Shown here in pieces: positions 22,069 through 43,183 of a stretch of 43,183 nucleotides of DNA. Source of the DNA: Oribacterium sp. (lineage in GTDB: Bacteria; Bacillota; Clostridia; Lachnospirales; Lachnospiraceae); assembly GCA_963592375.1 (NCBI GenBank), contig CAVAXR010000001.1:1-43183 (forward strand), in the 5' to 3' direction. The notes under the pieces were generated by a model. That model worked only from the letters and a program-made list of their open reading frames with translations. It had not been told where the DNA came from and did not search any database. The translations under genes were made by a program, and so were the position numbers. Within the stretch, counting starts at the first letter, position 1; each line of letters opens with the position of its first letter.

Positions 22069-22617
22069 TTACTCCATCGTCCAGAGGATTTCTTCGGGCA
22101 TCGGCACGGGATCCGGCTCCAGAGGATCCGGCTCCGGGGGAGCCGTGTACTTCTCCATCCGCTCCGTCACCGTGCGGGAGTACCATGTCTGGTAGATTCC
22201 GTTTTTCCATTTTTCCGCAGCCCCTCCCGCTCCGAGGTTGTAGCACATCAGCGCCAGACCGAGGGCGCCGTCCGTGCGTTCCAGATGCTCATGCAGGATC
22301 GCCGCGCCGATGGTCATCGAGTCCCTGGCTGAGTACAGATCATACGTCTCCAGCCCGGCCTCCTTCGCGTAGTGCCCGGCGAAGCTCCTGTGGATGCCCA
22401 TGAGGCCTTCACACGTTCCGTTCCCGGCCTCCGTGTCCAGCCCCGACTCCGTTTCTGCGATCGCAAGGATTACGCCCTCTGGAAGCCCCCATTCGCGCTC
22501 CAGCGTGTAGGAGTATAATTCCTCATCCTTCGTCAAATCTGCGCTCTGAGCGAGTCCTGACGCCGCTGTGAGCATTCCTGCGGCCAACATCGCCGCCGCC
22601 GTTCGTCTCCAGTTCAA
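22069..22617 (-). CDS. secreted lytic transglycosylase (SLT domain)
   Basis: AGGAGG RBS plus TTG 22617; signal-peptide-like N-terminus; AIAETES, GLMGI and LMCYNLG motifs. Confidence 0.85.
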   Translation of the reverse strand: MNWRRTAAAMLAAGMLTAASGLAQSADLTKDEELYSYTLEREWGLPEGVILAIAETESGLDTEAGNGTCEGLMGIHRSFAGHYAKEAGLETYDLYSARDSMTIGAAILHEHLERTDGALGLALMCYNLGAGGAAEKWKNGIYQTWYSRTVTERMEKYTAPPEPDPLEPDPVPMPEEILWTME

Positions 22618-22774
22618 TTGTGTTCCTCCTGTTTCCTTTTCGTCCCCAGCACATGGGGCAGATGTACGCGCAGTCTGGGAATGTGGAGAGTGCTGAGATG
22701 TTCCACTCCTCCCCGCAGAAGCGGCACCTGGCATAGCGCCGTCCGCTCCTGCGGTCTTCCTTCTCCGCACTCAT
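22523..22774 (-). CDS. small zinc-finger protein
   Basis: CRFCGEEWNIS...YICPMC; ATGA-coupled to the upstream gene; its 3' tail overlaps the SLT gene. Confidence 0.55.
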   Translation of the reverse strand: MSAEKEDRRSGRRYARCRFCGEEWNISALSTFPDCAYICPMCWGRKGNRRNTIELETNGGGDVGRRNAHSGVRTRSERRFDEG

Positions 22775-23751: not shown

Positions 23752-23973
23752 TTACGCCTCCTGTCCTGTTGACTTTACATCAATGGCAGAAAAAAGGGTC
23801 TCAATCGATACGTCCAGCGCACTCGCCACTTTTGCCAGGGTTCTTGTCGATGCGTTCTTTTCCGGGTGACGTTCCAGATAGTTGATCGTCGCGCGGGAAA
23901 GACCGCTCTTTTCGGCAAGTTCTCCCTGCGTCATGTTCCGCTTCATGCGGTTTTCACGAACGGTGTAGGTCAT
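23752..23973 (-). CDS. Cro-like HTH regulator
   Basis: MTQGELAEKSGLSRATINYLE; first gene of the leftward operon, divergent from the repressor. Confidence 0.9.
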   Translation of the reverse strand: MTYTVRENRMKRNMTQGELAEKSGLSRATINYLERHPEKNASTRTLAKVASALDVSIETLFSAIDVKSTGQEA

Positions 23974-24012: not shown

Positions 24013-24041
24013 AGTATACCACACCCGTTGCCCTTTGTCAA
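24013..24041 (-). promoter_or_regulatory. early lytic promoter (cro)
   Basis: TTGACA-N17-TATACT with extended -10 TG on the - strand. Confidence 0.85.
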
Positions 24042-24071
24042 GTCGATTTCCCACGGCATTTTGCACAAATC

Positions 24072-24100
24072 TTGACTTTCGTTTTTGTATCATGTATAAT
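24072..24100 (+). promoter_or_regulatory. repressor promoter
   Basis: TTGACT (24072-24077)-N17-TATAAT (24095-24100). Confidence 0.85.
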
Positions 24101-24136
24101 ATGCTTGACACATCAATTGAAAGGAGTGTCACTCCC

Positions 24137-24508
24137 ATGACTCTGAAGGACTTTCTGATACAGTACAGAACGGAACACGATCTGTCCCAGAGGCAGTTCG
24201 CAGCGATCTGCGGTCTATCTAACAGCTACATCTCCATGCTGGAGAGGGAGCGGAACCCCACCACAGGTGAAAAAATAGTCCCCACGCTGCAGGCGTTTGA
24301 AAAACTAGCCCGCGGCATGGGGATCACGCTGGAGGATATCTTTGATACGATCGAGGACACGCCGGTCGATCTGCGCTTCCACCCGGAGGGAGACGCGCCG
24401 GAGGACGAGCGGGAGCTTATTGCCGCTCTTCGCAGGATCCCGCCGGAGAAGCGGCGCGAGGCTCTGCGCTATCTGAAATATCTGGCAGCGTCGGAAGACG
24501 AAGCATAA
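24137..24508 (+). CDS. CI-like XRE repressor, 123 aa, without an S24 peptidase domain
   Basis: AAGGAG RBS; LSQRQFAAICGLSNSYISMLE HTH; short C-terminal helical hairpin ERELIAALRRIPPEKRREALRYLKYL. Confidence 0.9.
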   Translation: MTLKDFLIQYRTEHDLSQRQFAAICGLSNSYISMLERERNPTTGEKIVPTLQAFEKLARGMGITLEDIFDTIEDTPVDLRFHPEGDAPEDERELIAALRRIPPEKRREALRYLKYLAASEDEA

Positions 24509-24596
24509 GCGCGTCCCGCTCTTGTGGCGGGAGCTTGCGCAGGAATCGAAGCACCTGCAGAATGTCTCCGCTTGATACGATGAAATCGTCACGCAT
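24417..24596 (-). CDS. putative antirepressor, 59 aa, resembling the repressor C-terminal domain
   Basis: Below the ORF-track cutoff. MRDDFIVSSGDILQVLRFLRKLPPQERDALMLRLPTLPDISDSAEPRAASPAGSCEERQ; AAAGAGGG RBS; dedicated promoter. Confidence 0.65.
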   Translation of the reverse strand: MRDDFIVSSGDILQVLRFLRKLPPQERDALMLRLPTLPDISDSAEPRAASPAGSCEERQ

Positions 24597-24641
24597 ATCC
24601 GTTCCCTCTTTCTCCGTCTTTTTGTTCGATTTGTTGTCCCC

Positions 24642-24670
24642 ATAATAGCACCATATTCATCGCCTGTCAA
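24642..24670 (-). promoter_or_regulatory. sigma-A promoter for the antisense small gene
   Basis: TTGACA (24670-24665)-N17-TATTAT (24647-24642) with extended -10 TG. Confidence 0.8.
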
Positions 24671-24706
24671 GTGGAAGACGAATATTTTTTACATCGGAGG
24701 CGTACC

Positions 24707-26311
24707 ATGCCCAAAAATAAGAACAAGCCTTCGGAGCGCGTGCTCACGAAGGCCGTCATCTATGCCCGTTATTCCTCCTCCGGGCAGCGTGAGGAATCCA
24801 TCGAAGGGCAGCTCCGCGACTGCCGGAGCTATGCCATGAAGAACAGCATGGCTGTGGTCGGCGAGTACATTGACCGCGCCATGACCGGCACGTCCGACAA
24901 GAGGCCGGACTTTCAGCGCATGATCCGCGACTCCGCGAAGGGGCTGTTCGCCGTTGTCCTCGTCTGGAAAATCGACCGCTTCGCCAGGTCGAGATACGAT
25001 TCCGCAATCTATAAGAATAAGCTGAAGGCCAACGGAGTGCGCGTTGTGTCGGCAAACGAGACGATTCCCGACACGCCGGAAGGCATCGTGCTGGAATCTG
25101 TCATGGAAGGATTTGCCGAATACTACTCTGCGAATCTGTCGCAGAATGTCCGCCGGGGAAACTACGATTCCGCGCTGAAAAGACAATCGCTTGGTCATCA
25201 CATCCTCGGCTATCGGACTGGAGCGGACAAACGCTTTGAGCTCGACCCCCAGACCGCACCGGTTGTTCTGAAGATTTTCCAAGACTTCCTCGCGGGGAAG
25301 AAGCTGCGCGACATCGCGGACGAGTTGAATGCCAATGGGCACAGGACGGTTCTCGGAAAGCCGTTCACGGCGAATGCTCTGCGGTACATCCTAAAGAACG
25401 AGCGGTACACGGGGCTCTATGTCTATGAGGATATCCGCGATGAGCACGGCATCCCGGAAATCATCGACCGGGAGACGTTTGCCCGGGCGCAGGTGCTGAT
25501 CGAGGAGCACCGCCGCACACCGGCAGCGAAAAAGTCGCAGGAGGTATTTATGCTGACGGGAAAACTCTTTTGCGGGGACTGTGGTGAACCGATGAGCGGA
25601 GCCGCCGGAACGAGCCACACGGGGAAGGTCTATACCTATTATATGTGTCTTGGGAAAGAACATGGGACGTGTACGCATCCCAGAGTGCGCAAATCCGAGC
25701 TGGAGAACGCCGTTCTTGGGGAACTTATGCGCGCCGTGCATTCCAACGATGTCATCCAGGCGTTTGCGGACAGGTTCATGATCTGGCAGTCGGAGCAGAG
25801 CTCCACAGAGGAGCTTGACGGCCTCCGGGCGAAGCTGCGGGAGACGGAGACCGCGATTAAGAACGTCATGCGGTTTGTCGACACAGGCATTGTATCGGAT
25901 TCTTTAAGGACGCATCTGATGGAGCTTGAGGCCGAGCGGGTAGATCTGGTGCGGGGTATCGCGAAGCTGGAGCTGGAGAACCCGAAGCTGAAGCGTGAGG
26001 ACGTAGTCTGGTTTTTGGAGCAGTTTCGCGAAGGAAATGTCACGGACGAGAAGTGGAAGCTGCAGCTTACAGAGACGTTTCTGCGCGCAGCCTATCTCTA
26101 CACAGACGGCCGTCTTTTGCTCCAGCTGAACTTTTGCGGAGAGCAAAGCAAAACCTCGACGAAGCTGGCCGAAGCCGCCGTCGAGGCAGGAGAAGAGGAA
26201 AGGTTCAACTTGGCACGGTCTGGTGCACCAGACGAAGGCAAAGGAGAACCCCTGTCCCTGTACTTTTACGCCGGCATCTTTGTCATTTTATCGCGTTTTA
26301 AGCAGATTTAG
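24707..26311 (+). CDS. int: large serine recombinase (integrase)
   Basis: GGAGG RBS before ATG 24707; IYARYSS catalytic motif, DR..TG..DKRP.FQ, WKIDRFAR, recombinase domain, zinc ribbon CGDCG...YYMC...C, coiled coil. Confidence 0.96.
   Translation: MPKNKNKPSERVLTKAVIYARYSSSGQREESIEGQLRDCRSYAMKNSMAVVGEYIDRAMTGTSDKRPDFQRMIRDSAKGLFAVVLVWKIDRFARSRYDSAIYKNKLKANGVRVVSANETIPDTPEGIVLESVMEGFAEYYSANLSQNVRRGNYDSALKRQSLGHHILGYRTGADKRFELDPQTAPVVLKIFQDFLAGKKLRDIADELNANGHRTVLGKPFTANALRYILKNERYTGLYVYEDIRDEHGIPEIIDRETFARAQVLIEEHRRTPAAKKSQEVFMLTGKLFCGDCGEPMSGAAGTSHTGKVYTYYMCLGKEHGTCTHPRVRKSELENAVLGELMRAVHSNDVIQAFADRFMIWQSEQSSTEELDGLRAKLRETETAIKNVMRFVDTGIVSDSLRTHLMELEAERVDLVRGIAKLELENPKLKREDVVWFLEQFREGNVTDEKWKLQLTETFLRAAYLYTDGRLLLQLNFCGEQSKTSTKLAEAAVEAGEEERFNLARSGAPDEGKGEPLSLYFYAGIFVILSRFKQI
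26201..26251. other. probable attP within the integrase 3' end
   Basis: Perfect 16-bp palindrome GTCTGGTGCACCAGAC (26218-26233) flanked by GGTTC (26202-26206) and GAACC (26246-26250). Confidence 0.6.
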
Positions 26312-26389: not shown

Positions 26390-29300
26390 TTAGTTCCAGG
26401 GAGCTTCACCCAGAGCGCTCTTGGCGTAGCCCTCTGCAAGGTAGATGGCATCCTTTTGGTCATCGGACAGCGGAAGGGAATTGATGTACGCCATAACCTT
26501 GGCCTTTTTGGAGCCGGATATGGTCTTGCCGTTTTTATCCTTATCCGCAGACATTTCGGATACCGCGCTGATGTAGGACGCATAGGTTGCGTAGGGGATT
26601 TTCGCCTGCTCAAAGGCCGTGAACTTTGCCTGGCCGGACGTGCTGTCTCCGATGATCTGGAGAATGGCGATCCGCTTCTCGGCATCGTTCGCAACGGAGT
26701 TCGTAGCGATGGCAAGGATTTTCTGGTTATCCGAGACGGAAGCCTTGCCGTCCAAAGGAGCGAGGGATTTGAGATCGGTGTAGATGGAAGCCGCCGCGGA
26801 ATCGGAGACTCCGGCAGCGTAGAGGGAATCGTACTTACCCGCGTCAGCCTTCATCTGCTGGTAGTAGCTGAGCACATCCTTGATGAATGTGCGTGCTTCC
26901 TCTGATTTGCCCGAGTAGGTCTTGTTCACCCAACGGGAAAACTCCAGCGCCTTCTCCGAAGGTTTCGCATTCGTGGCATTGATTTCGGCATACTTGGCAT
27001 AGGTATCGACAAACTGATCGTCCGTGAAGCCCATCTTCATGCATTCCTTCATGCCTTTTGCGATGTTCGTAGATGTTGTGACAAGCGTTGTGACAACTGT
27101 GTACTTGTCGGATACATCGAGATCCTTCAGCGCTGCCAGCTTGTCGGCCTGTTTTACCTCTCCGTCTGCATCGGTAAACGCCGCCTGCACGGACAGGAAG
27201 TCATCCATATCCATACCGGCCTTGCGGAACTTCTTCACCTGCGCCTTCACGGAATCGGAATCGGAAACGAGTGCGTAGTACGCAGACTCCTTCGCGGCAT
27301 CCGGCAGAGAAGCTGAACGGAGAGCATCGATCTTTCCGTCCTTTTTCAGCGCGTCTCCCGTCTCATAATCGTACATGGACTGCACGATGGAACAGGCCTC
27401 CGTCATGGAAACGCCGCCGTTATCGATGATGGCCTGTACATCGGCCTGTGCGGAAGCCGAAGCAATCTTCGTCATGTAGATGAAGCTCTTCTCATCCTCG
27501 TCAAGGTCGAGCGCGTTCAGCGCGGAAATCTTTTCCGAGGTTTTTGTTCCCGCCGCGGAATCCTTCACCTTATCGTAAGCGTAGTACACGGATTTTATGT
27601 CAACCATCCCGGAGTCGTATAGGTCAACGGCGCTGGGTTGCGGCTTCTTCTGGTTGTCCTCGCCGTACAGAGCCGTCTCGATGGCGTCGCGATAGACAGT
27701 CTCGTCCAGACCGATGTATTCGAAGTATTCCATTCTGGCCTTTTCGGAGGCTGCGTCCATCACCTTCGCGACCATGTCCACCTTATCCGCATCGGAGGCA
27801 TCAATGTATTCCTGTGTCTTATAGAGCGCCTCCAGGCCGGAGTAGGTTTCCTGGCCGAGGGTTTTCGCGAACTGCGTATAGGCATGGGAATCAAGGTAAT
27901 AGGTTTGTCCCGCATAGGTCACGTTTTTCGGAGCCTGTTTCGGAAGCGCCGATGTATCCCCGGTTGCGGCATAGAGTCTCTTCATCTCGTTATCCGCTTC
28001 ATAGGACGTAACCTTCTGGATGTATCCGGGAGACAGCGTATTGTAGAGGAGCCTCTTCCACCACGTATCGCCGACGTTCTTGCGCTCGTTGCCGTACTGG
28101 TCAACGGAGGGTTCCAGCTGCATGGATGCGAAGGGAATCTTGGCGATGATGCGGCGTGCAAGCTGCTCGGCCTTCTTGGAGTACGGGGAATCGGTCGGTG
28201 CGTAGGTCGAGCGGCGCGTATCGTCCACCACGCGCGCCATCTTTCCTCCGAAGGTCGGGAAGAACTGAAGCGCATAGCTTTCCAGCGCAGACCACGCCAC
28301 AGAGGACGCGACACCGGCGCCGGTGGACTCATAGGATTCGAACATATCGGTAATGCCGGAGAGCATGGACAACGAGAAAATCGGCTCCATGATGCCCAAG
28401 ACGGAATCCACCACCTCGGAAGCCGACAGATCCTTGTTTTCCCGCTTTGCGTACTGTGCAAGGGAAACGCCGATAAAGAACGGCATGCAGGCCGGAGCGA
28501 CCCAGTCCATGGTGTAGGTATAATCGCCGAAGTGAATGGAGTAATCCTGCCGCCCGGTCTCCTCTTCCATAGAGGATTCGCGATCCTTCTCGTCGGATCC
28601 GGCAGAGGTGAAGGCCGCGCCGGTCGCGCCGAGGAAGGCTCCCAGGATGGTCACACCCGTGCCCGTAAGCCCGGCCGAGAAATCGGAGATGATCTGAGAC
28701 GCCGTAACGTCCTTGCCCCGTGCCTTCTGCGTGATGTCATAGACGCCCTTAATGAGACCGGCAGGTGAGTATTCAAGACCGCGCTTCAGCACGTTGATCG
28801 GGGTTTTCTTGAAGGGCATAAGGCCGCCCATGAAGAACTCTGCGGCTGCGCTGCTGTTCTCGATCTGATTGAGCAGATTGGCCGCATGGCTTGCATCACG
28901 ATAGGTAGCCTTCAGTGCCTCCTCAAAAGCCACCTCACGGGCACGCAGCTTCTGCGCGTCCGTAATGTTCTCCGGGGTCAGCTTGTTCGCCTTCATGTAC
29001 TCGGCAAAGGAATTGACGTAGTTGCGGCGCAGGAAGAGCGCGTCCTCCGCCTCCAGCGTGTTGGAAGAGAATTTGCGCACGGCTTCAGCAGCAGGCGTAG
29101 CGAAGATTTGGCGCTTCTCCTCGATTCCCGCCGTCTCGGAGCGCTGCCCTCCGGCCTGTAGGTCAGCTTTGATCTCCGCATAGTCAGCCGCCGCGAAGGA
29201 CTTGCGCCCGGAATCCTTGCCCGTAAGCACGGCCTTCGTGCGTTCGCCGCTTTTGATGAAGGCCTTTTCGAAGGCCGTTGCGACCACGTCGCGCACGTTC

Positions 29301-32300
29301 TTCATGCCAAGCTGCACAGTGTTGCCGAAGACGTTGCGGATATGCGTTGTGGGGTTTAGAAGCATACCGATGTAGCGCACGGCACGGATGCGTTCAGAGA
29401 CGGAGCCAGGAAGCTGATCGGCGATGTTCTGCTCCAGAGCCTCTCTGGCCGCAGCCAGATCCTCCTCGGTCTTGGCATTGATGAAGTTTTCCATCAGTGT
29501 CTCGTCGATGATGACCTCGCCGCCCTTGTTCTTCACAAAGCTCAGATAGGCCTGCATGACGGACTGCGCCGTTTTGATGGTCTTCTTGTACTGTTTGGCG
29601 TTGTCCAACGTGATCTCAGCCGCCGCCATGGATTCCGACAGTGCCCGGATGTCTCCAGCATAGCGGTTCCACGTTTTCCATGCGCTGGTGATTTCGGAAT
29701 TGGTCTTTGCAAGCTCGGCCTTCAGAACCTTGCGCTCGGCGCGGGTTTTTTCAAGGGTATTTAATTCCCGCTCCAGCTTCGCACGGCGCTCCGCAAGCTG
29801 CCCCAGAAGCTCCTTCTGCTTTGCGATGTTGTCAAGGGTCTTCTTCTGAGCGGCCTCAATCTTTCCGGGGATGGCGTTGTACTCCCGACGAATCTTGGCA
29901 AGTTCCTCAGCCGATGCTCTCTTCTCTCCAAGCTCCCGCTCCAGCTCCGTGCGGCGCTTCGTCAGCGCGTCCAGCTCCTGCTGAAACTCGGACTGCGTCG
30001 GATCGGCATAGGGCTCCAGCTTGTGTGAAAGCTCTTCCATGACGTGCTTTGTGTCTGTGGCTGCGCGCTGGAAATCCTCGTTTGTGGCATCTCCGGCTTT
30101 TACGGCCTGCGCCGTAGCCTCAAGGTGATCCACGGAATCGATCGCGCCGTTGATGCTGTCACGGATGCGCTGAACCTCGCGCGTTTTGCGGGAGGCTTTC
30201 CCGGTCTTCTTGCGCTTGGCATAGTTCTCGGCCTGTCTTGCGTAGTGGTAAAGCTGTCCTTCCGGCGTAAGCCGCTTTAGGAGGGAGAGTGCCTGGATGC
30301 GCTGGCCGTAATCCGTACCAAGGGTAGCGAGATCGGAGAGGATTTCCACAGACTCCTTCATGCGTCCGCTGCGCCTGGCCTCCAGCATCAGACGTTCGCC
30401 GAAGGCAATCTGTGCAGCGCCGTCCTTGCCCTCGCCGCCCGACTGCGCCCATTTGCGAAACGCACCGTAGGCCTGGTCAAAGGAATCGTAGGAGGAGCGG
30501 ATATCGATGGCCTGTGCCACGTTCTCCTCGTTGGTAGTCGGCGTATAGGTATCGAGGACGGCAACATCGCGCACATCAAAGTCATAAGCCGCAGCCTCGT
30601 CCGCCGTGCGATAGAATCGGCGCACATTTCGGTCATCTGCAGCTTTTGCAGGAAGCTCGGAGACAGTTGTGTGATAGGACGGATCGTCGACATCGTAGAT
30701 CTGTTCGCCGGGCTCGATTTTCCCGTACTTCTCCACGTTCTTTGCAATGAGCGCGTCAAGGTTGAACCCCGCCACAGCCGCCTGTCCCGTCGGCAGATAG
30801 TCCGTAAGGGACTCCTGCGAACGATAGCCCCCATTCAGCGCCACCGTCCCCCCGCTCTCCGCGTACCGGCCGGAGCCGCGCTGACGGTTCACGTCATCCA
30901 ACGCTTCCGCAAGGATATTCTGCGCCCGGACAAGGCGATCCTGCGCCACATCAGTCGCAAGGCCGTTTTCGGTGGAGCGCGTCAGCACATCTTCGACGGA
31001 ATCGAGGAGAACGCGCGCGGCATCCGGGTCGGTTTCTGCAACACCGCGCAGAGCGTCAAGACTGCCGAGGAACTTTTCTGAAACATACGCCGCCATGAAT
31101 TCATGCTCCGCGTCAGCGCGGGAGAGCTTGACTCCGGCCTCTGCATAGCCCGTGATGATGTCATCCAGAACGCCGTTGTAGGCTTCAGACCGAAGGCTCT
31201 CATTGCGCAGGACGAAGCTCTTCAGCCGTCCGTAGCCCTTTGCCGCTTCAGCCCTGTGCGTCAGTTCATGGGCATACGTTGTCCAAATGGCATCGTTTGC
31301 CTGCAGCCGGGAATTTAAGACAACGGTATCCGCTTCGCGGTTGTAGTAGCCGTTGTAGCGGGATCCGAGATCGGCAAACTCCACCTTGGAGCCGAGCTTT
31401 CCGGCAAGGTTGGAAATTTCAAGTGAAACAGTCGCATTCACGCCGTTCTCACGCGCCGACCGCTCAGTCAGCCGCATGATTTCCTCAGAGGAATATCCAC
31501 GCCCCGCTTCGTACACGGATTTATGTGCGGACACATCACTGGTGGCTGTCACCTCTGGCAGAGATTTCATGATGTCGGAGAGATTCACGGAGGCCTGCGA
31601 ATCGCCGCCGGTGTACCGTGCGTTCCAGTAGCTGTTCTGCAAGTCCTGTATGGTCTGCTCGACCGATGTCTGCACGGCCTCCGCGATCTGAGCCTCCGAC
31701 ATGCCGCCGTGAAGCGCGATATCCGTCTCGTTCGCGCGGTCATAACGCGCCTCCTGCGTCATGAACTCAGAGAGTGCAGTAAGCTGATCGGGCAGCGTCA
31801 TGTGCTGGTTCTCGTCAAAGTAGCCCGGATAATCCGAAGACAGTTCCCTGAAGAGTGTATCGATGCTCATGGCCTTTTTATCGCCCGTGCGAAGCCATCC
31901 GTTCTTCCGTCTCCACTCGCCCCAGGAGCCACGTCCGACCTCGGACTTGACGTCTCCGGGGATGTAGAGCTTCGTCTCGCGGATATGATCGTATGCCTTC
32001 TTATAGTCCTCGCGCACCTTCGGCATGGAGCGCACGGCATTGTCCCGCTGCACAGTCAAGGCTGCGGTATAGCCCTTCGTCAAGGATTCTCTCAAGGCCT
32101 GCGTAGCCTCGTTGGAGCGGTTCTGTACCTCAGCACTGCGGTCTCCTGCAAGGTAATCGCCAACGGCATTGAGATACGTCTCAGCCGCGTCAGCCGCCGC
32201 AGAAACGCTTTCCACATCGGTTCTGCCGGAGGCATCCTTAAACTGCCGATTCAGCTCCTGCTTGAAGTTCAGCTTTTCGGAAACCGACATATGCCGCGTC

Positions 32301-34651
32301 TCATCCGTGACGTACTTCGTTCGGACGGTTTGCTGCGCCGGAGTGGTCTGCTGTGTCTCCTGCACGGAGGATGATGCTGCCGGAAGAACCTGTGTCTGCG
32401 TGGAAAGGGTACCGCGGGAAGACTCCTCGGCCTGTCTTGCCGCAGCGTCCATGGCTTCTGCGGAATTATCGGAGACGGTCTGTGTGGGACGAAGCTGCTG
32501 CACGTCGGCCGGAACCGTCGGATCGGCCGCCGGGGTTTCGGCTATGGGAGAAGATTCCTGCGTCTGCCCGGAGAGATTCATCTCACGCGCCGCAGACTCC
32601 TCGGCCTGTCTTGCCGCAGCGTCCAGCTCCTGCTGTTCGCGCAGCTTCGCCGCGCGCTCCTCGATGTTGATGCCCTCCTGCCGTCCGATATCGGACAGGG
32701 TATCGGCATCGAGAGATGCGCGAAGGGTAGCCAGAGCCTTTGCGTCAATGCTCTTTCCTGCGGTCTGAGCCTTCGTCAGCTCGACCGCCGCCTTGTAACC
32801 CGCGGACTGATTGTCCAGCGTCATCAAGCCTTCACGGATATAGAGATTCAGCGAATCCGCGTCGTTCACATACTCCGCGACATTGCGGTTATACGATTTC
32901 GCATCTGCCGCCGCATTCAATCCGGCCACAGCTGTGCCCCCAAGGCCGAACATTGCGCCGGAGATGGAGCCGGCAAGCGCCGCCATAGCGGGGTTGCGCA
33001 CGAAGAACTCAGCCGTAGCCTCGCTCCTTGCCTCCTTGTCAGAAGCACCCGCAGCCTTCAGCTCACGCACACGCGTTTCATATTCGGATTTCTCGCCCAT
33101 AACGGCCATGTCGGCGAGATTCCCGGCGAACTCGGAAATCAGCTCTTCAGAGCCTTCCGACAGCGTCTGCGTCGCAATGTTGCGGAAGAGGCTCTTGACA
33201 CCCGCAGCACCCGAAGTAAGGACTGTGTCGAAAAGATTGTCAAGCCCCAGCTTCTCCGTTGCCGCCTCGATGCCGCCGGAGATCGCGCCGGAAAGCACGG
33301 CCTGTCCCTGCGTACCGCCGCGTTCCAGCGTATCGATAGCCTGGCTGCCAGCCGCCTGTGTGCCGATCCAGATGAGAGAGCCGACGGGTCCGAGAGCCGC
33401 CGATGCCGTGCTGTTCAGCATGGAATAGGCCGTCTGCCCAAGCAGCTTTCCGACAGTGCCCTTGTTCTCAAGAGACTTCTCCTGTGCAAAGGACGCAGCT
33501 CGTGTCGCGCCGACAGCACCCTCGTTCAAGTCGGTATACTTTCCCCGCACGGTATCTGCCGCAATCTGCGCATACGCCGCAGGAGACGCAAGGAAATTCG
33601 TGACACCGATAGCCACCTGTCCGGCCTTCGAAGCTCCCGCGATGCCCTTCTGCTGCTGCGTGAAAAGGTCTTCCGTAAGCTGAGACTTGATGGCGTTTGC
33701 ATAGGTCTCTACTTCATCGTACTTCCCTTGATTTGCCAGATTCAGAACAACGTTTTTCTGAGCGTCCGACATATACTTGGCAAGGTTGTACCACTCGCCG
33801 CCCGCTTCGGACTCGTCCCCGATCCGAGCCGTCTTGCCAAGTGACTCGTTCACGGCCTTTGCAATGGTGCGGCCTCCGTTTCCCACAGTAATTGCAGGGG
33901 ACTCATACTCCGGCATAGCCGCCGTGAGATATTTCGCCTCATAGCTGCGTGCTGTTTTCAGATTATTGACATCCGACTGGTTCTTCTGCGCGGTGTAGAG
34001 TTTGCTTTCAGCCCTCTTAACGGCAGCATCGTTGGATGCAGCCGCTTCAACAGCGTTCTGATACGCAGCAGTCTGGTAGGCCGGGGTGTAGAGCGTCCCC
34101 TGCCGCTTCAGATAGTCCTCTCCCGTCCGGGGATTCTGCCTGTTCACCGCCGCATTCGTACTCTTCACGCCGATTTCCGCTCTGCGCACGTCCTCATCCG
34201 CAGCTTTGCTTGCACGGTCAAGGTTTAGGTACTGCGTGCCGTTTGCAGCCTGAGCGCGGACATCCTGCAGCCCGTGCAGCTCATCCGTAATGCTCTGAAA
34301 CTTCTGGAAGCCTGCGGTAAGCTCCTCTGCCTTTTTTCTCTGCTCCTCATACGCATCGGCATATGCGTTCTGCGTAAGATCCTCCACAATCTGATCGCGG
34401 ATTTTTCTGGTTTCAGCCGCAGTCCCGAGCTTCGCCTTGCCTGTAGAAGAATATCTCCCCTCCGTTTTTGCCGGAAGGGAGATATTCTTCTTCGCCGTGG
34501 TGGACGCAGAGGAGGACGTTTTCCCCGTACTCACGTCCTCCTCGATCTGGCTCTTGATCTGGCTGAGTGCCGCCGCCTTATCGGTTTTCTTCTTTTTGAC
34601 GGTCTGAGTGCCGCCGCCCTTCAGATTGAGTTTGTCGGTGAGAACTGCCAT
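26390..34651 (-). CDS. giant virion protein (probable DNA ejection / polyvalent protein), 2753 aa
   Basis: Last gene of the structural operon; Gly/Ala-rich membrane-like segments; HELTH zincin-like motif; long coiled coil; C-terminal helical repeats. Confidence 0.8.
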   Translation of the reverse strand: MAVLTDKLNLKGGGTQTVKKKKTDKAAALSQIKSQIEEDVSTGKTSSSASTTAKKNISLPAKTEGRYSSTGKAKLGTAAETRKIRDQIVEDLTQNAYADAYEEQRKKAEELTAGFQKFQSITDELHGLQDVRAQAANGTQYLNLDRASKAADEDVRRAEIGVKSTNAAVNRQNPRTGEDYLKRQGTLYTPAYQTAAYQNAVEAAASNDAAVKRAESKLYTAQKNQSDVNNLKTARSYEAKYLTAAMPEYESPAITVGNGGRTIAKAVNESLGKTARIGDESEAGGEWYNLAKYMSDAQKNVVLNLANQGKYDEVETYANAIKSQLTEDLFTQQQKGIAGASKAGQVAIGVTNFLASPAAYAQIAADTVRGKYTDLNEGAVGATRAASFAQEKSLENKGTVGKLLGQTAYSMLNSTASAALGPVGSLIWIGTQAAGSQAIDTLERGGTQGQAVLSGAISGGIEAATEKLGLDNLFDTVLTSGAAGVKSLFRNIATQTLSEGSEELISEFAGNLADMAVMGEKSEYETRVRELKAAGASDKEARSEATAEFFVRNPAMAALAGSISGAMFGLGGTAVAGLNAAADAKSYNRNVAEYVNDADSLNLYIREGLMTLDNQSAGYKAAVELTKAQTAGKSIDAKALATLRASLDADTLSDIGRQEGINIEERAAKLREQQELDAAARQAEESAAREMNLSGQTQESSPIAETPAADPTVPADVQQLRPTQTVSDNSAEAMDAAARQAEESSRGTLSTQTQVLPAASSSVQETQQTTPAQQTVRTKYVTDETRHMSVSEKLNFKQELNRQFKDASGRTDVESVSAAADAAETYLNAVGDYLAGDRSAEVQNRSNEATQALRESLTKGYTAALTVQRDNAVRSMPKVREDYKKAYDHIRETKLYIPGDVKSEVGRGSWGEWRRKNGWLRTGDKKAMSIDTLFRELSSDYPGYFDENQHMTLPDQLTALSEFMTQEARYDRANETDIALHGGMSEAQIAEAVQTSVEQTIQDLQNSYWNARYTGGDSQASVNLSDIMKSLPEVTATSDVSAHKSVYEAGRGYSSEEIMRLTERSARENGVNATVSLEISNLAGKLGSKVEFADLGSRYNGYYNREADTVVLNSRLQANDAIWTTYAHELTHRAEAAKGYGRLKSFVLRNESLRSEAYNGVLDDIITGYAEAGVKLSRADAEHEFMAAYVSEKFLGSLDALRGVAETDPDAARVLLDSVEDVLTRSTENGLATDVAQDRLVRAQNILAEALDDVNRQRGSGRYAESGGTVALNGGYRSQESLTDYLPTGQAAVAGFNLDALIAKNVEKYGKIEPGEQIYDVDDPSYHTTVSELPAKAADDRNVRRFYRTADEAAAYDFDVRDVAVLDTYTPTTNEENVAQAIDIRSSYDSFDQAYGAFRKWAQSGGEGKDGAAQIAFGERLMLEARRSGRMKESVEILSDLATLGTDYGQRIQALSLLKRLTPEGQLYHYARQAENYAKRKKTGKASRKTREVQRIRDSINGAIDSVDHLEATAQAVKAGDATNEDFQRAATDTKHVMEELSHKLEPYADPTQSEFQQELDALTKRRTELERELGEKRASAEELAKIRREYNAIPGKIEAAQKKTLDNIAKQKELLGQLAERRAKLERELNTLEKTRAERKVLKAELAKTNSEITSAWKTWNRYAGDIRALSESMAAAEITLDNAKQYKKTIKTAQSVMQAYLSFVKNKGGEVIIDETLMENFINAKTEEDLAAAREALEQNIADQLPGSVSERIRAVRYIGMLLNPTTHIRNVFGNTVQLGMKNVRDVVATAFEKAFIKSGERTKAVLTGKDSGRKSFAAADYAEIKADLQAGGQRSETAGIEEKRQIFATPAAEAVRKFSSNTLEAEDALFLRRNYVNSFAEYMKANKLTPENITDAQKLRAREVAFEEALKATYRDASHAANLLNQIENSSAAAEFFMGGLMPFKKTPINVLKRGLEYSPAGLIKGVYDITQKARGKDVTASQIISDFSAGLTGTGVTILGAFLGATGAAFTSAGSDEKDRESSMEEETGRQDYSIHFGDYTYTMDWVAPACMPFFIGVSLAQYAKRENKDLSASEVVDSVLGIMEPIFSLSMLSGITDMFESYESTGAGVASSVAWSALESYALQFFPTFGGKMARVVDDTRRSTYAPTDSPYSKKAEQLARRIIAKIPFASMQLEPSVDQYGNERKNVGDTWWKRLLYNTLSPGYIQKVTSYEADNEMKRLYAATGDTSALPKQAPKNVTYAGQTYYLDSHAYTQFAKTLGQETYSGLEALYKTQEYIDASDADKVDMVAKVMDAASEKARMEYFEYIGLDETVYRDAIETALYGEDNQKKPQPSAVDLYDSGMVDIKSVYYAYDKVKDSAAGTKTSEKISALNALDLDEDEKSFIYMTKIASASAQADVQAIIDNGGVSMTEACSIVQSMYDYETGDALKKDGKIDALRSASLPDAAKESAYYALVSDSDSVKAQVKKFRKAGMDMDDFLSVQAAFTDADGEVKQADKLAALKDLDVSDKYTVVTTLVTTSTNIAKGMKECMKMGFTDDQFVDTYAKYAEINATNAKPSEKALEFSRWVNKTYSGKSEEARTFIKDVLSYYQQMKADAGKYDSLYAAGVSDSAAASIYTDLKSLAPLDGKASVSDNQKILAIATNSVANDAEKRIAILQIIGDSTSGQAKFTAFEQAKIPYATYASYISAVSEMSADKDKNGKTISGSKKAKVMAYINSLPLSDDQKDAIYLAEGYAKSALGEAPWN

Positions 34652-42619: not shown

Positions 42620-43183
42620 TTACGGATATACGATTTCATTCGCAGTGTAGTATGTGGTATTGATGGACGGCGTACCCGTAAAGCTGCCGCCGGTGTCGGA
42701 GAACATATAGTCGAGTGCATTGTTTGCCGTAGTGCCAGTGCCGGACATCGGTATGCGGTATGCGTATTTGTAGGTAGAGTCCTGCGTGGTGGAAAGTTTG
42801 ATGTTGGTGCAGCCGTCGAACATATCGTAGTAGCAGCTGCTTGCCAATATGGTCGCCGGAAGTGCCGGTGCAGCCGTGAGTGACGTGCAGCTGGCGAACA
42901 TCCAGTAGTAGCAGTTCTCCGCCAATGTGGTTGCCGGAAGTGCCGGTGCAGCCGTGAGTGACGTGCAGCTGGCGAACATAGCGCGGTAGCAGTTCTCCGC
43001 CAATGTGGTTGCCGGAAGTGCCGGTGCAGCCGTGAGTGACGTGCAGTTGTGGAACATAGCGCGGTAGCAGCTGCTTGCCAATGTGGTCGCCGGAAGTGCC
43101 GGTGCAGCCGTGAGTGACGTGCAGCTGTCGAACATAGCGCGGTAGCAGTTCTCCGCCAATGTGGTTGCCGGAAGTGCCGGTGC
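42620..43183 (-). CDS. 3' part of the LRR-like 26-aa repeat protein (continues from 1..585)
   Basis: CTSLTAAPALPATTLAxxCYxxMFxx repeats, then a C-terminal cap IKLSTTQDSTYKYAYRIP...MFSDTGGSFTGTPSINTTYY; open to the window end. Confidence 0.88.
   Translation of the reverse strand, partial: APALPATTLAENCYRAMFDSCTSLTAAPALPATTLASSCYRAMFHNCTSLTAAPALPATTLAENCYRAMFASCTSLTAAPALPATTLAENCYYWMFASCTSLTAAPALPATILASSCYYDMFDGCTNIKLSTTQDSTYKYAYRIPMSGTGTTANNALDYMFSDTGGSFTGTPSINTTYYTANEIVYP
42836..43183. repeat. 78-bp coding tandem repeat, 4 full units plus 36 nt
   Basis: Units start at 42836, 42914, 42992, 43070 and 43148; 43148-43183 is identical to 1-36. Confidence 0.97.

Follow-up and report, generated by a model that had tools for sequence, protein, structure and literature searches.

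The window analysed here is a whole contig of 43,183 nt (CAVAXR010000001.1, assembly GCA_963592375.1, Oribacterium sp.). It carries a 36-nt terminal repeat, its ends (positions 1–80 and 43104–43183) lie in a short repeated stretch, and it is a circular, complete temperate phage genome with genes for a terminase, a portal protein, a capsid protein, an internal virion protein, an endolysin, RecE/RecT and a large serine recombinase. The bin assignment of a circular phage is weak. A near-identical copy of the locus (L100, 5 differences in 900 nt) lies in a bin labelled Oscillospiraceae and the nearest relatives of the repressor come from Oscillospiraceae and Faecalibacterium; the host is therefore probably a gut clostridium. 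Adjoining the internal-virion-protein gene, positions 26390–34651 (minus strand) encode a protein of 2753 aa for which neither Pfam nor NCBIfam gave a convincing family; it is probably a giant virion protein that a podovirus-like phage ejects. The early lytic operon includes, distant from the lysis genes, a gene for an SLT lytic transglycosylase (22069–22770, minus strand) that may have a signal peptide.

The control region contains, in order, cro (minus strand), the repressor gene (plus), a small ORF (minus) and the integrase gene (plus). The Cro-like HTH gene (23752–23973, minus; assigned by domain search) is the first of the early lytic operon, and promoter scans placed the early lytic promoter, TTGACA-17-TG.TATACT, at 24013–24041 (minus) and the repressor promoter, TTGACT-17-TATAAT, at 24072–24100 (plus). 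The repressor (P0002; 24137–24508, plus) is a 123-aa XRE-family protein comprised of an HTH_3 domain, a linker and a two-helix C-terminal domain; in its AlphaFold model the HTH domain and linker are followed by C-terminal helices at residues 89–99 and 103–122. The large serine recombinase gene (24707–26311, plus; domain search) is divergent from the promoter of the small gene and starts 110 nt upstream of that gene. A domain search of the repressor returned HTH_3 alone, with no S24 peptidase, and no NCBIfam model for ImmA/IrrE or AimR/TPR matched any of the 53 phage ORFs, in agreement with the initial annotation, which had seen neither a self-cleavage domain nor an adjacent ImmA/IrrE protease. 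Peptidase_M78 had no match in the bin, which is 73% complete (the phage contig itself is circularly complete).

The small antisense gene (24417–24596, minus strand) encodes a 59-aa peptide, P0001, a candidate antirepressor by its ORF, conservation and profile likeness. It is preceded by a GA-rich ribosome-binding site (RBS) at 24604–24615 (minus), an element read from the sequence and present in 33/33 relatives, and by a sigma-A-type promoter at 24642–24670 (minus; promoter scan). In this promoter a TTGACA box (24670–24665) is separated by a 17-nt spacer from an extended −10 element, TG-n-TATTAT, ending at 24642, with 11 of 12 consensus matches. The 3.7-kb scan contained four sites this good against 1.6 in shuffles, and the other three include the cro and repressor promoters. 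The ORF (24596–24417) overlaps the repressor gene by 92 nt, and since codons 1–29 lie outside the overlap, so do 18 of the 23 residues of its core. Thus the promoter, the RBS-led ORF, the extent of the overlap and the position of most of the core outside it are as initially proposed. The AlphaFold model of P0001 has helices at residues 9–21 and 24–36 followed by a low-confidence, unstructured tail; prolines at residues 35 and 38 fall where the peptides of the family continue helix 2, which ends early here.

We found convergent genes of this kind throughout the relatives with the same repressor tail. From 161 loci with a repressor relative, 25 duplicates were removed and the remaining 136 were classed by C-terminus using an HMM built from repressors only. 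Three of the 36 loci with a two-helix tail were cut by contig ends, which left 33 testable loci (including the window and L100; about 16–18 clusters). All 33 carry a convergent RBS-led ORF, in one frame and starting 70–88 nt past the repressor stop; a conserved antisense ORF had been named as a test of the initial proposal, and it is there. The same loose ORF rule picked out 6 of 61 loci with long repressors and 7 of 35 with other short repressors (4 truncated loci set aside), and among these 13 are four (L074, L124, L130 and L131) that have a hairpin tail and a look-alike peptide. One locus found via its integrase, L003, has an unrelated DNA-binding domain and the same gene layout. Of 19 pairs, which were hand-picked and are non-independent, 14 have a pS above pN in the non-overlap codons; 3 pairs are identical and 2 have non-synonymous changes alone. 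In 21 relatives, a divergent cro-like gene was present in 20 and an integrase gene in 16, and no M78 protease or AimR was detected among the 55 neighbours scanned (65 listed). The repressors of L124, L195, L197 and L200 are 180–205 aa long, with an extra segment between HTH and tail, and the peptide module is still present.

Searches that did not start from the repressor recovered the same arrangement. In a genome search begun from the peptide, three further loci came up; at each the ORF converges on an HTH gene with the tail, and two of these genes have other N-terminal domains. A scan of viral contigs with the promoter motif alone, which is only partly independent because the motif derives from the first set and some contigs recur, yielded 94 stretches; 80 of them were fetched, representing 44 distinct loci. 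At 29 of these 44 loci an RBS-led ORF in the same frame converges on a hairpin-tailed gene; the other 15 mostly have no RBS-led ORF. The scan added more tail types and repressors with several other N-terminal domains, the N-terminal HTH being judged by eye, as most do not match the repressor N-terminal model. At L218 the same promoter motif and an RBS precede a 51-aa ORF that converges on an HTH-like gene in a different frame. The peptide profile matched 155 clusters at 50% identity (E ≤ 0.001), nearly all of them short proteins. Run on genomes, it matched 0/400 other members of the bin's family and 5/401 in the family of genome G403, so the module is rare per genome. Pfam held no family for the peptide clusters and none of the 8 clusters looked up had an informative name; across 104 peptides the only Pfam match at E ≤ 0.01 was DUF2281, in 2. 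Rfam gave no match in 6 loci. Taken together, these comparisons indicate that the small gene is real, conserved and mostly unannotated. P0002 itself found no relative in a single-protein scan of viral sequences and two distant ones in a metagenome scan; L334, the one inspected, is a long repressor without the ORF.

The family genes share transcription signals at both ends. An extended −10 of the TG-n-TATAAT type is present in 30 of 31–32 family promoters versus 6/91 controls, and a good −35 in 9 of 31 distinct promoters. In 27 of the 31 a dyad, CTRYCGRYAG, lies at the start site, mostly 7 nt past the −10; −10 and dyad together occur in 1 of 91 controls. At the other end an antisense hairpin of −10 kcal/mol or stronger, followed by a T-run, is situated 3' of the ORF within the codons of the repressor linker in 30/34 clusters, compared with 8/92 controls and 4/34 on the sense strand. 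By these sequence criteria the peptide gene is a discrete, conserved, protein-coding transcription unit that lies tail-to-tail with hairpin-tailed repressors. The window departs from the family pattern: its promoter has a consensus −35, no dyad (best match 6/10) and no Spo0A-like boxes, and no linker terminator of the family kind was found in the window. It does contain a strong hairpin with a T-run within the repressor gene (24270–24323, minus strand; −29.1 kcal/mol, z −5.4), likely the terminator of the antisense transcript. The hairpin in the same region is weaker in 20/20 other relatives tested and equal in the near-identical L100 only. We consider it likely that this hairpin at 24323–24270, which the 20 relatives are without, replaces the family's linker terminator in this phage. 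L100 was the only relative of the window's variant that we found, and the single difference between the two small ORFs is silent.

The product of the small gene resembles the tail of the repressor on which the gene converges. The core of P0001 aligns with the repressor C-terminus without gaps, as first noticed, with 6 identities in 23 positions, and the non-overlap part of P0001 scores 38 against the last 40 repressor residues (shuffle mean 18), a score reached by 0/2000 shuffles. Across the family, the peptide and tail profiles match with 92.7% probability in hhalign (E 4e-7) over 33 columns without a gap. On the tail profile the 37 peptides all share one register, 36 of them from the non-overlap part alone, though 7 of the 37 do not beat shuffles at p < 0.07. 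The peptide profile, run on 10 host genomes, matched a peptide in 8, and its further matches were repressor tails only, in 4 of the 10. When P0001 was left out of the profile, the small ORF still came first (E 1e-5) of 44,635 six-frame segments in the bin, with the repressor next (E 0.03). The tail HMM, searched genome-wide, did not find P0001 at E ≤ 5, and the likeness is therefore one-sided for the window copy. Peptide–tail DNA identity across clusters is 0.35, 0.55 and 0.31 at the first, second and third codon positions; the low third-position value relative to the second points to likeness at the protein level, and a recent inverted duplication of DNA, or an RNA duplex, was rejected as its source on this ground. 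For the window copy alone, the third-position value is 0.61. Thus, on the basis of alignments and models, the peptide is like the repressor tail in sequence and in predicted fold. Fold-search matches were not counted as evidence: they were HTH-driven, with SinR/SinI (1b0n) on top at rmsd 14.5, those for the hairpin were weak (Z ≤ 3.9; CapH C-terminal domain, TP901-1 CI dimerisation domain), and an Atlas search returned three unnamed clusters at 0.81–0.87, which are leads only.

Co-variation of each peptide with its cognate tail, also named as a test by the initial annotation, is weak overall. Cognate matching was not significant in 16 clusters (p = 0.26) and reached p = 0.01–0.02 in sets of 22–34 clusters (12.4 versus 9.9, p = 0.02 in 34), values that kinship inflates; co-variation is thus modest in the larger set, whose clusters are kin. 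Three residues ahead of the loop leucine, an aromatic is shared in 11/16 versus 2/18, a contrast likewise inflated by kinship. Outside the overlap the window peptide ranks its own tail 2nd of 16. A third type of peptide, 56–60 aa long (L198, L199, L223, L237 and L267), has the same promoter motif and terminator; these peptides are conserved among themselves and weakly like their repressor tails, and those of L198, L199, L237 and L267 are barely alike to their own (scores −6 to 9).

We therefore favour, as the probable function of the small gene, a decoy antirepressor that would disrupt the dimers of the repressor in the way AimX acts on AimC, without AimR or AimP. The repressor would dimerise through its C-terminal two-helix hairpin, as judged from SinR, AimC and similar XRE repressors, and the peptide would fold as a copy of this hairpin without a DNA-binding head. 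It may then pair with a repressor monomer in the place of the partner, upon which the repressor would lose DNA binding, the cro promoter would be released and lytic growth would start, on infection or on induction. It weighs against this reading that the window promoter is near-consensus and has no visible operator: with a strong antirepressor behind it, lysogeny would be difficult to keep stable. The initial annotation had arrived at an induction switch of this kind under possible LexA control; the conserved antisense gene with a tail-like product stands, within a cro/repressor/integrase module lacking S24 and ImmA, but the LexA control is not supported.

The closest tested system is the AimX-AimC-AimL "extended arbitrium" module of the Bacillus phages phi106, phiW23, BMBtp14, Wbeta and Waukesha92 (bioRxiv 10.1101/2025.11.23.689978), and by analogy with it we infer that this phage works like AimX. 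As described there, aimX is a convergent, overlapping small gene whose product acts at the protein level by heterodimer formation, the antisense RNA layer is dispensable and an explicit analogy to SinI is drawn (bioRxiv 10.1101/2025.11.23.689978). The survey in that preprint was confined to the genus Bacillus, and the string "Clostridi" does not appear in the main text (bioRxiv 10.1101/2025.11.23.689978). The decoy design is thus already known from Bacillus phage AimX, and the clostridial gene would be a variant without AimR/AimP. Gene order is the same in both, with a small, helical, convergent ORF (29–80 aa in the arbitrium module, 59 aa here) overlapping the 3' end of a short HTH repressor gene that has no auto-cleavage domain and lies beside a divergent cro-like HTH gene (20/21 relatives). 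The systems differ in that aimR and aimP lie directly upstream of aimX, and neither is present here; the clostridial peptide has its own sigma-A promoter and a family terminator in the repressor linker, with no AimR antitermination or LexA box; it is a detectable tail look-alike, unlike AimX, which is described as highly divergent; and its hosts are gut Clostridia.

The sinI gene lies upstream of sinR on the same strand. SinI, too, is a small antirepressor, and it imitates the domain through which an XRE repressor oligomerises; the peptide here resembles the C-terminal helical hairpin of its own repressor. SinI-SinR differs in being a chromosomal biofilm switch. Transcription of sinI in Bacillus subtilis is triggered by Spo0A~P (review PMC4238804), and some of the clostridial relatives have Spo0A-like boxes. 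The SinI family gave no Pfam match for P0001 or P0002 (E ≤ 0.1) or for the 104 peptides (E ≤ 0.01), and a search of PDB sequences gave none at E ≤ 10. The TF-smORF modules of linear Vibrio and Aeromonas phages, such as smORF72, are also small, non-proteolytic, SOS-independent antirepressors; the smORF is driven by a dedicated phage transcription factor encoded alongside, and the description given there includes no repressor-tail overlap or mimicry (PMC10432266). ImmR-ImmA of ICEBs1 and S24 self-cleaving CI repressors occupy the same position in the lysogeny module and are proteolytic, in contrast to this phage, which has neither S24 nor M78. The ORF is mostly missing beside long repressors that share the DNA-binding domain but have ends that look S24-like by eye. 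LexA-controlled phage antirepressors (Tum, Gifsy, phi106 aimX) have an SOS box at the promoter; the clostridial small gene has none. A literature search, with subscription papers outside its range, found no account of the clostridial module.

Binding of the tail might also serve another end, with the peptide acting as a constant titrator or co-factor that sets the threshold of free repressor, or the state or stability of its oligomers, with no inducible switch. The weak cognate specificity would fit this, as would the window promoter, which is close to consensus, shows neither a LexA box nor a palindrome, a Spo0A-like box or a match to the repressor operator, and so may be always on. We nevertheless consider constant titration unlikely, as a start-site dyad in 27/31 family promoters and a good −35 in 9/31 look like regulated transcription, and the AimX and SinI precedents are described as inducible. 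The active agent could instead be the antisense RNA, pairing with the 3' end of the repressor mRNA or acting by transcription collision, with the ORF secondary. The transcript is complementary to the tail-coding repressor mRNA, about 240 nt of it in the window, and its promoter and terminator are strongly conserved. However, RBS, frame and purifying selection outside the overlap indicate a protein, as do the third- and second-position identities (0.31 versus 0.55) and the lack of an Rfam match in 6 loci, and in AimX systems recoding and start-to-stop alleles are reported to show that the protein does the work, which together make an RNA agent quite improbable. As the second layer envisaged in the initial annotation it is possible but limited, since the terminator of the relatives stops the transcript at the repressor linker and the RNA layer of AimX systems is described as immaterial.

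Two further explanations concern whether the window copy, or any copy, is a working gene. The window lacks the palindrome and the linker terminator, helix 2 is short and L100 is the sole relative of the variant found, as would be expected if the family were functional and this copy a degenerate or rewired remnant. Against decay, the ORF is intact with an RBS and a strong promoter, a replacement terminator-like hairpin is unique to the variant, the sole ORF difference from L100 is silent and the peptide, scored on its non-overlap part, places its own tail second among 16; we regard a remnant as very improbable. That there is no gene, and that the overlap or an inverted DNA repeat at the repressor end accounts for the likeness, can hardly be the case: the repressor strand fixes roughly half of the ORF and third-position identity is 0.61 in the window, but the non-overlap codons alone still show the likeness, an open frame and pN < pS, third-position identity across clusters is 0.31, and the gene has its own promoter, RBS and terminator.

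If the small gene encodes a decoy antirepressor, the inducing signal is the most interesting point of the clostridial module, and we searched its promoters for candidates. A CGAAC half-site taken initially as a hint of LexA control is present at 24628–24624, but no full box accompanies it: GAAC-N4-GTTC is absent within 2 mismatches from both intergenic regions of the window, no LexA box (exact, or in four single-mismatch forms) occurs in 31 family promoters, and the host-type box [AG]AAC-N4-GTT[CT] is absent in 33 of 34 cluster representatives, the remaining one being too short. Host lexA promoters do carry an SOS-like box, of the form (G/A)AAC-N4-GTTT; with the box seen there and not at the window or family promoters, LexA control of the small gene was rejected. 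In five host genomes (L299–L303) recA has no SOS-like box within 260 nt upstream, whereas three lexA genes do; recA may lie inside operons in these hosts.

Control of the peptide promoter by the repressor itself was likewise rejected on operator scores. The operator TGTTYAA-N4-TTRMACA scores 13.5–21.4 at the cro promoters of relatives; among 18 peptide promoters the highest score is 3.7, and the window's peptide promoter scores −5.6. The best window matches to the relatives' operator are at 24093–24110 (7.5) and 24036–24053 (3.5), and from these comparisons the window operators are diverged from the family, together with a G-to-S change in the recognition helix. An 11-nt repeat, 10/11 identical, at 24036–24046 and 24665–24675 spans the −35 boxes of the cro and small-gene promoters; it could be plain promoter consensus or a common operator.

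In the relatives, the trigger probably acts at the start-site palindrome, bound by something other than the repressor. Because the dyad is common to repressors with different recognition helices, we infer that it is read by a host factor or by a structure at the RNA 5' end. Tested as a motif of a host regulon, the dyad showed no enrichment over the reversed pattern in 5 host genomes and was absent upstream of lexA and recA. The Spo0A box TGNCGAA (PMC7643835) has an exact match in 6 of 34 cluster representatives (shuffle mean 0.4), located 50–60 nt upstream of the −10, and is in tandem with a 3-nt spacer in 5 of 34 (shuffle mean 0.03). Controls gave 0/91, and the window has none. Four of 5 host bins contained Spo0A; it was detected in neither G401 nor G000, both incomplete. 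These Spo0A-like boxes could equally regulate the divergent accessory or integrase genes and are a lead only. A broader reading, which we put forward as speculative and rather doubtful, is that promoter, decoy gene, repressor tail and linker-codon terminator form one overprinted unit placed on unrelated DNA-binding domains, an arbitrium- and LexA-independent induction cassette that would be widespread in phages of gut Clostridia and be read by a host regulator, Spo0A~P at the tandem boxes and another factor at the palindrome. Sporulation or starvation, and not DNA damage, would then be the signal that induces these prophages.

The module names a candidate switch for one phage group in Oscillospiraceae-type hosts, in a small gene that annotation usually misses or leaves unnamed. 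The question is directly testable, as expression of the peptide should induce the prophage, and the conserved promoter elements would mark where the natural signal acts. Should the decoy reading be true, it would extend the AimX mechanism beyond arbitrium. At one locus, L307 (G405:C35), a similar leader stands directly after the −10 box of a 28-aa hydrophobic ORF, which resembles Fst-type type I toxins.
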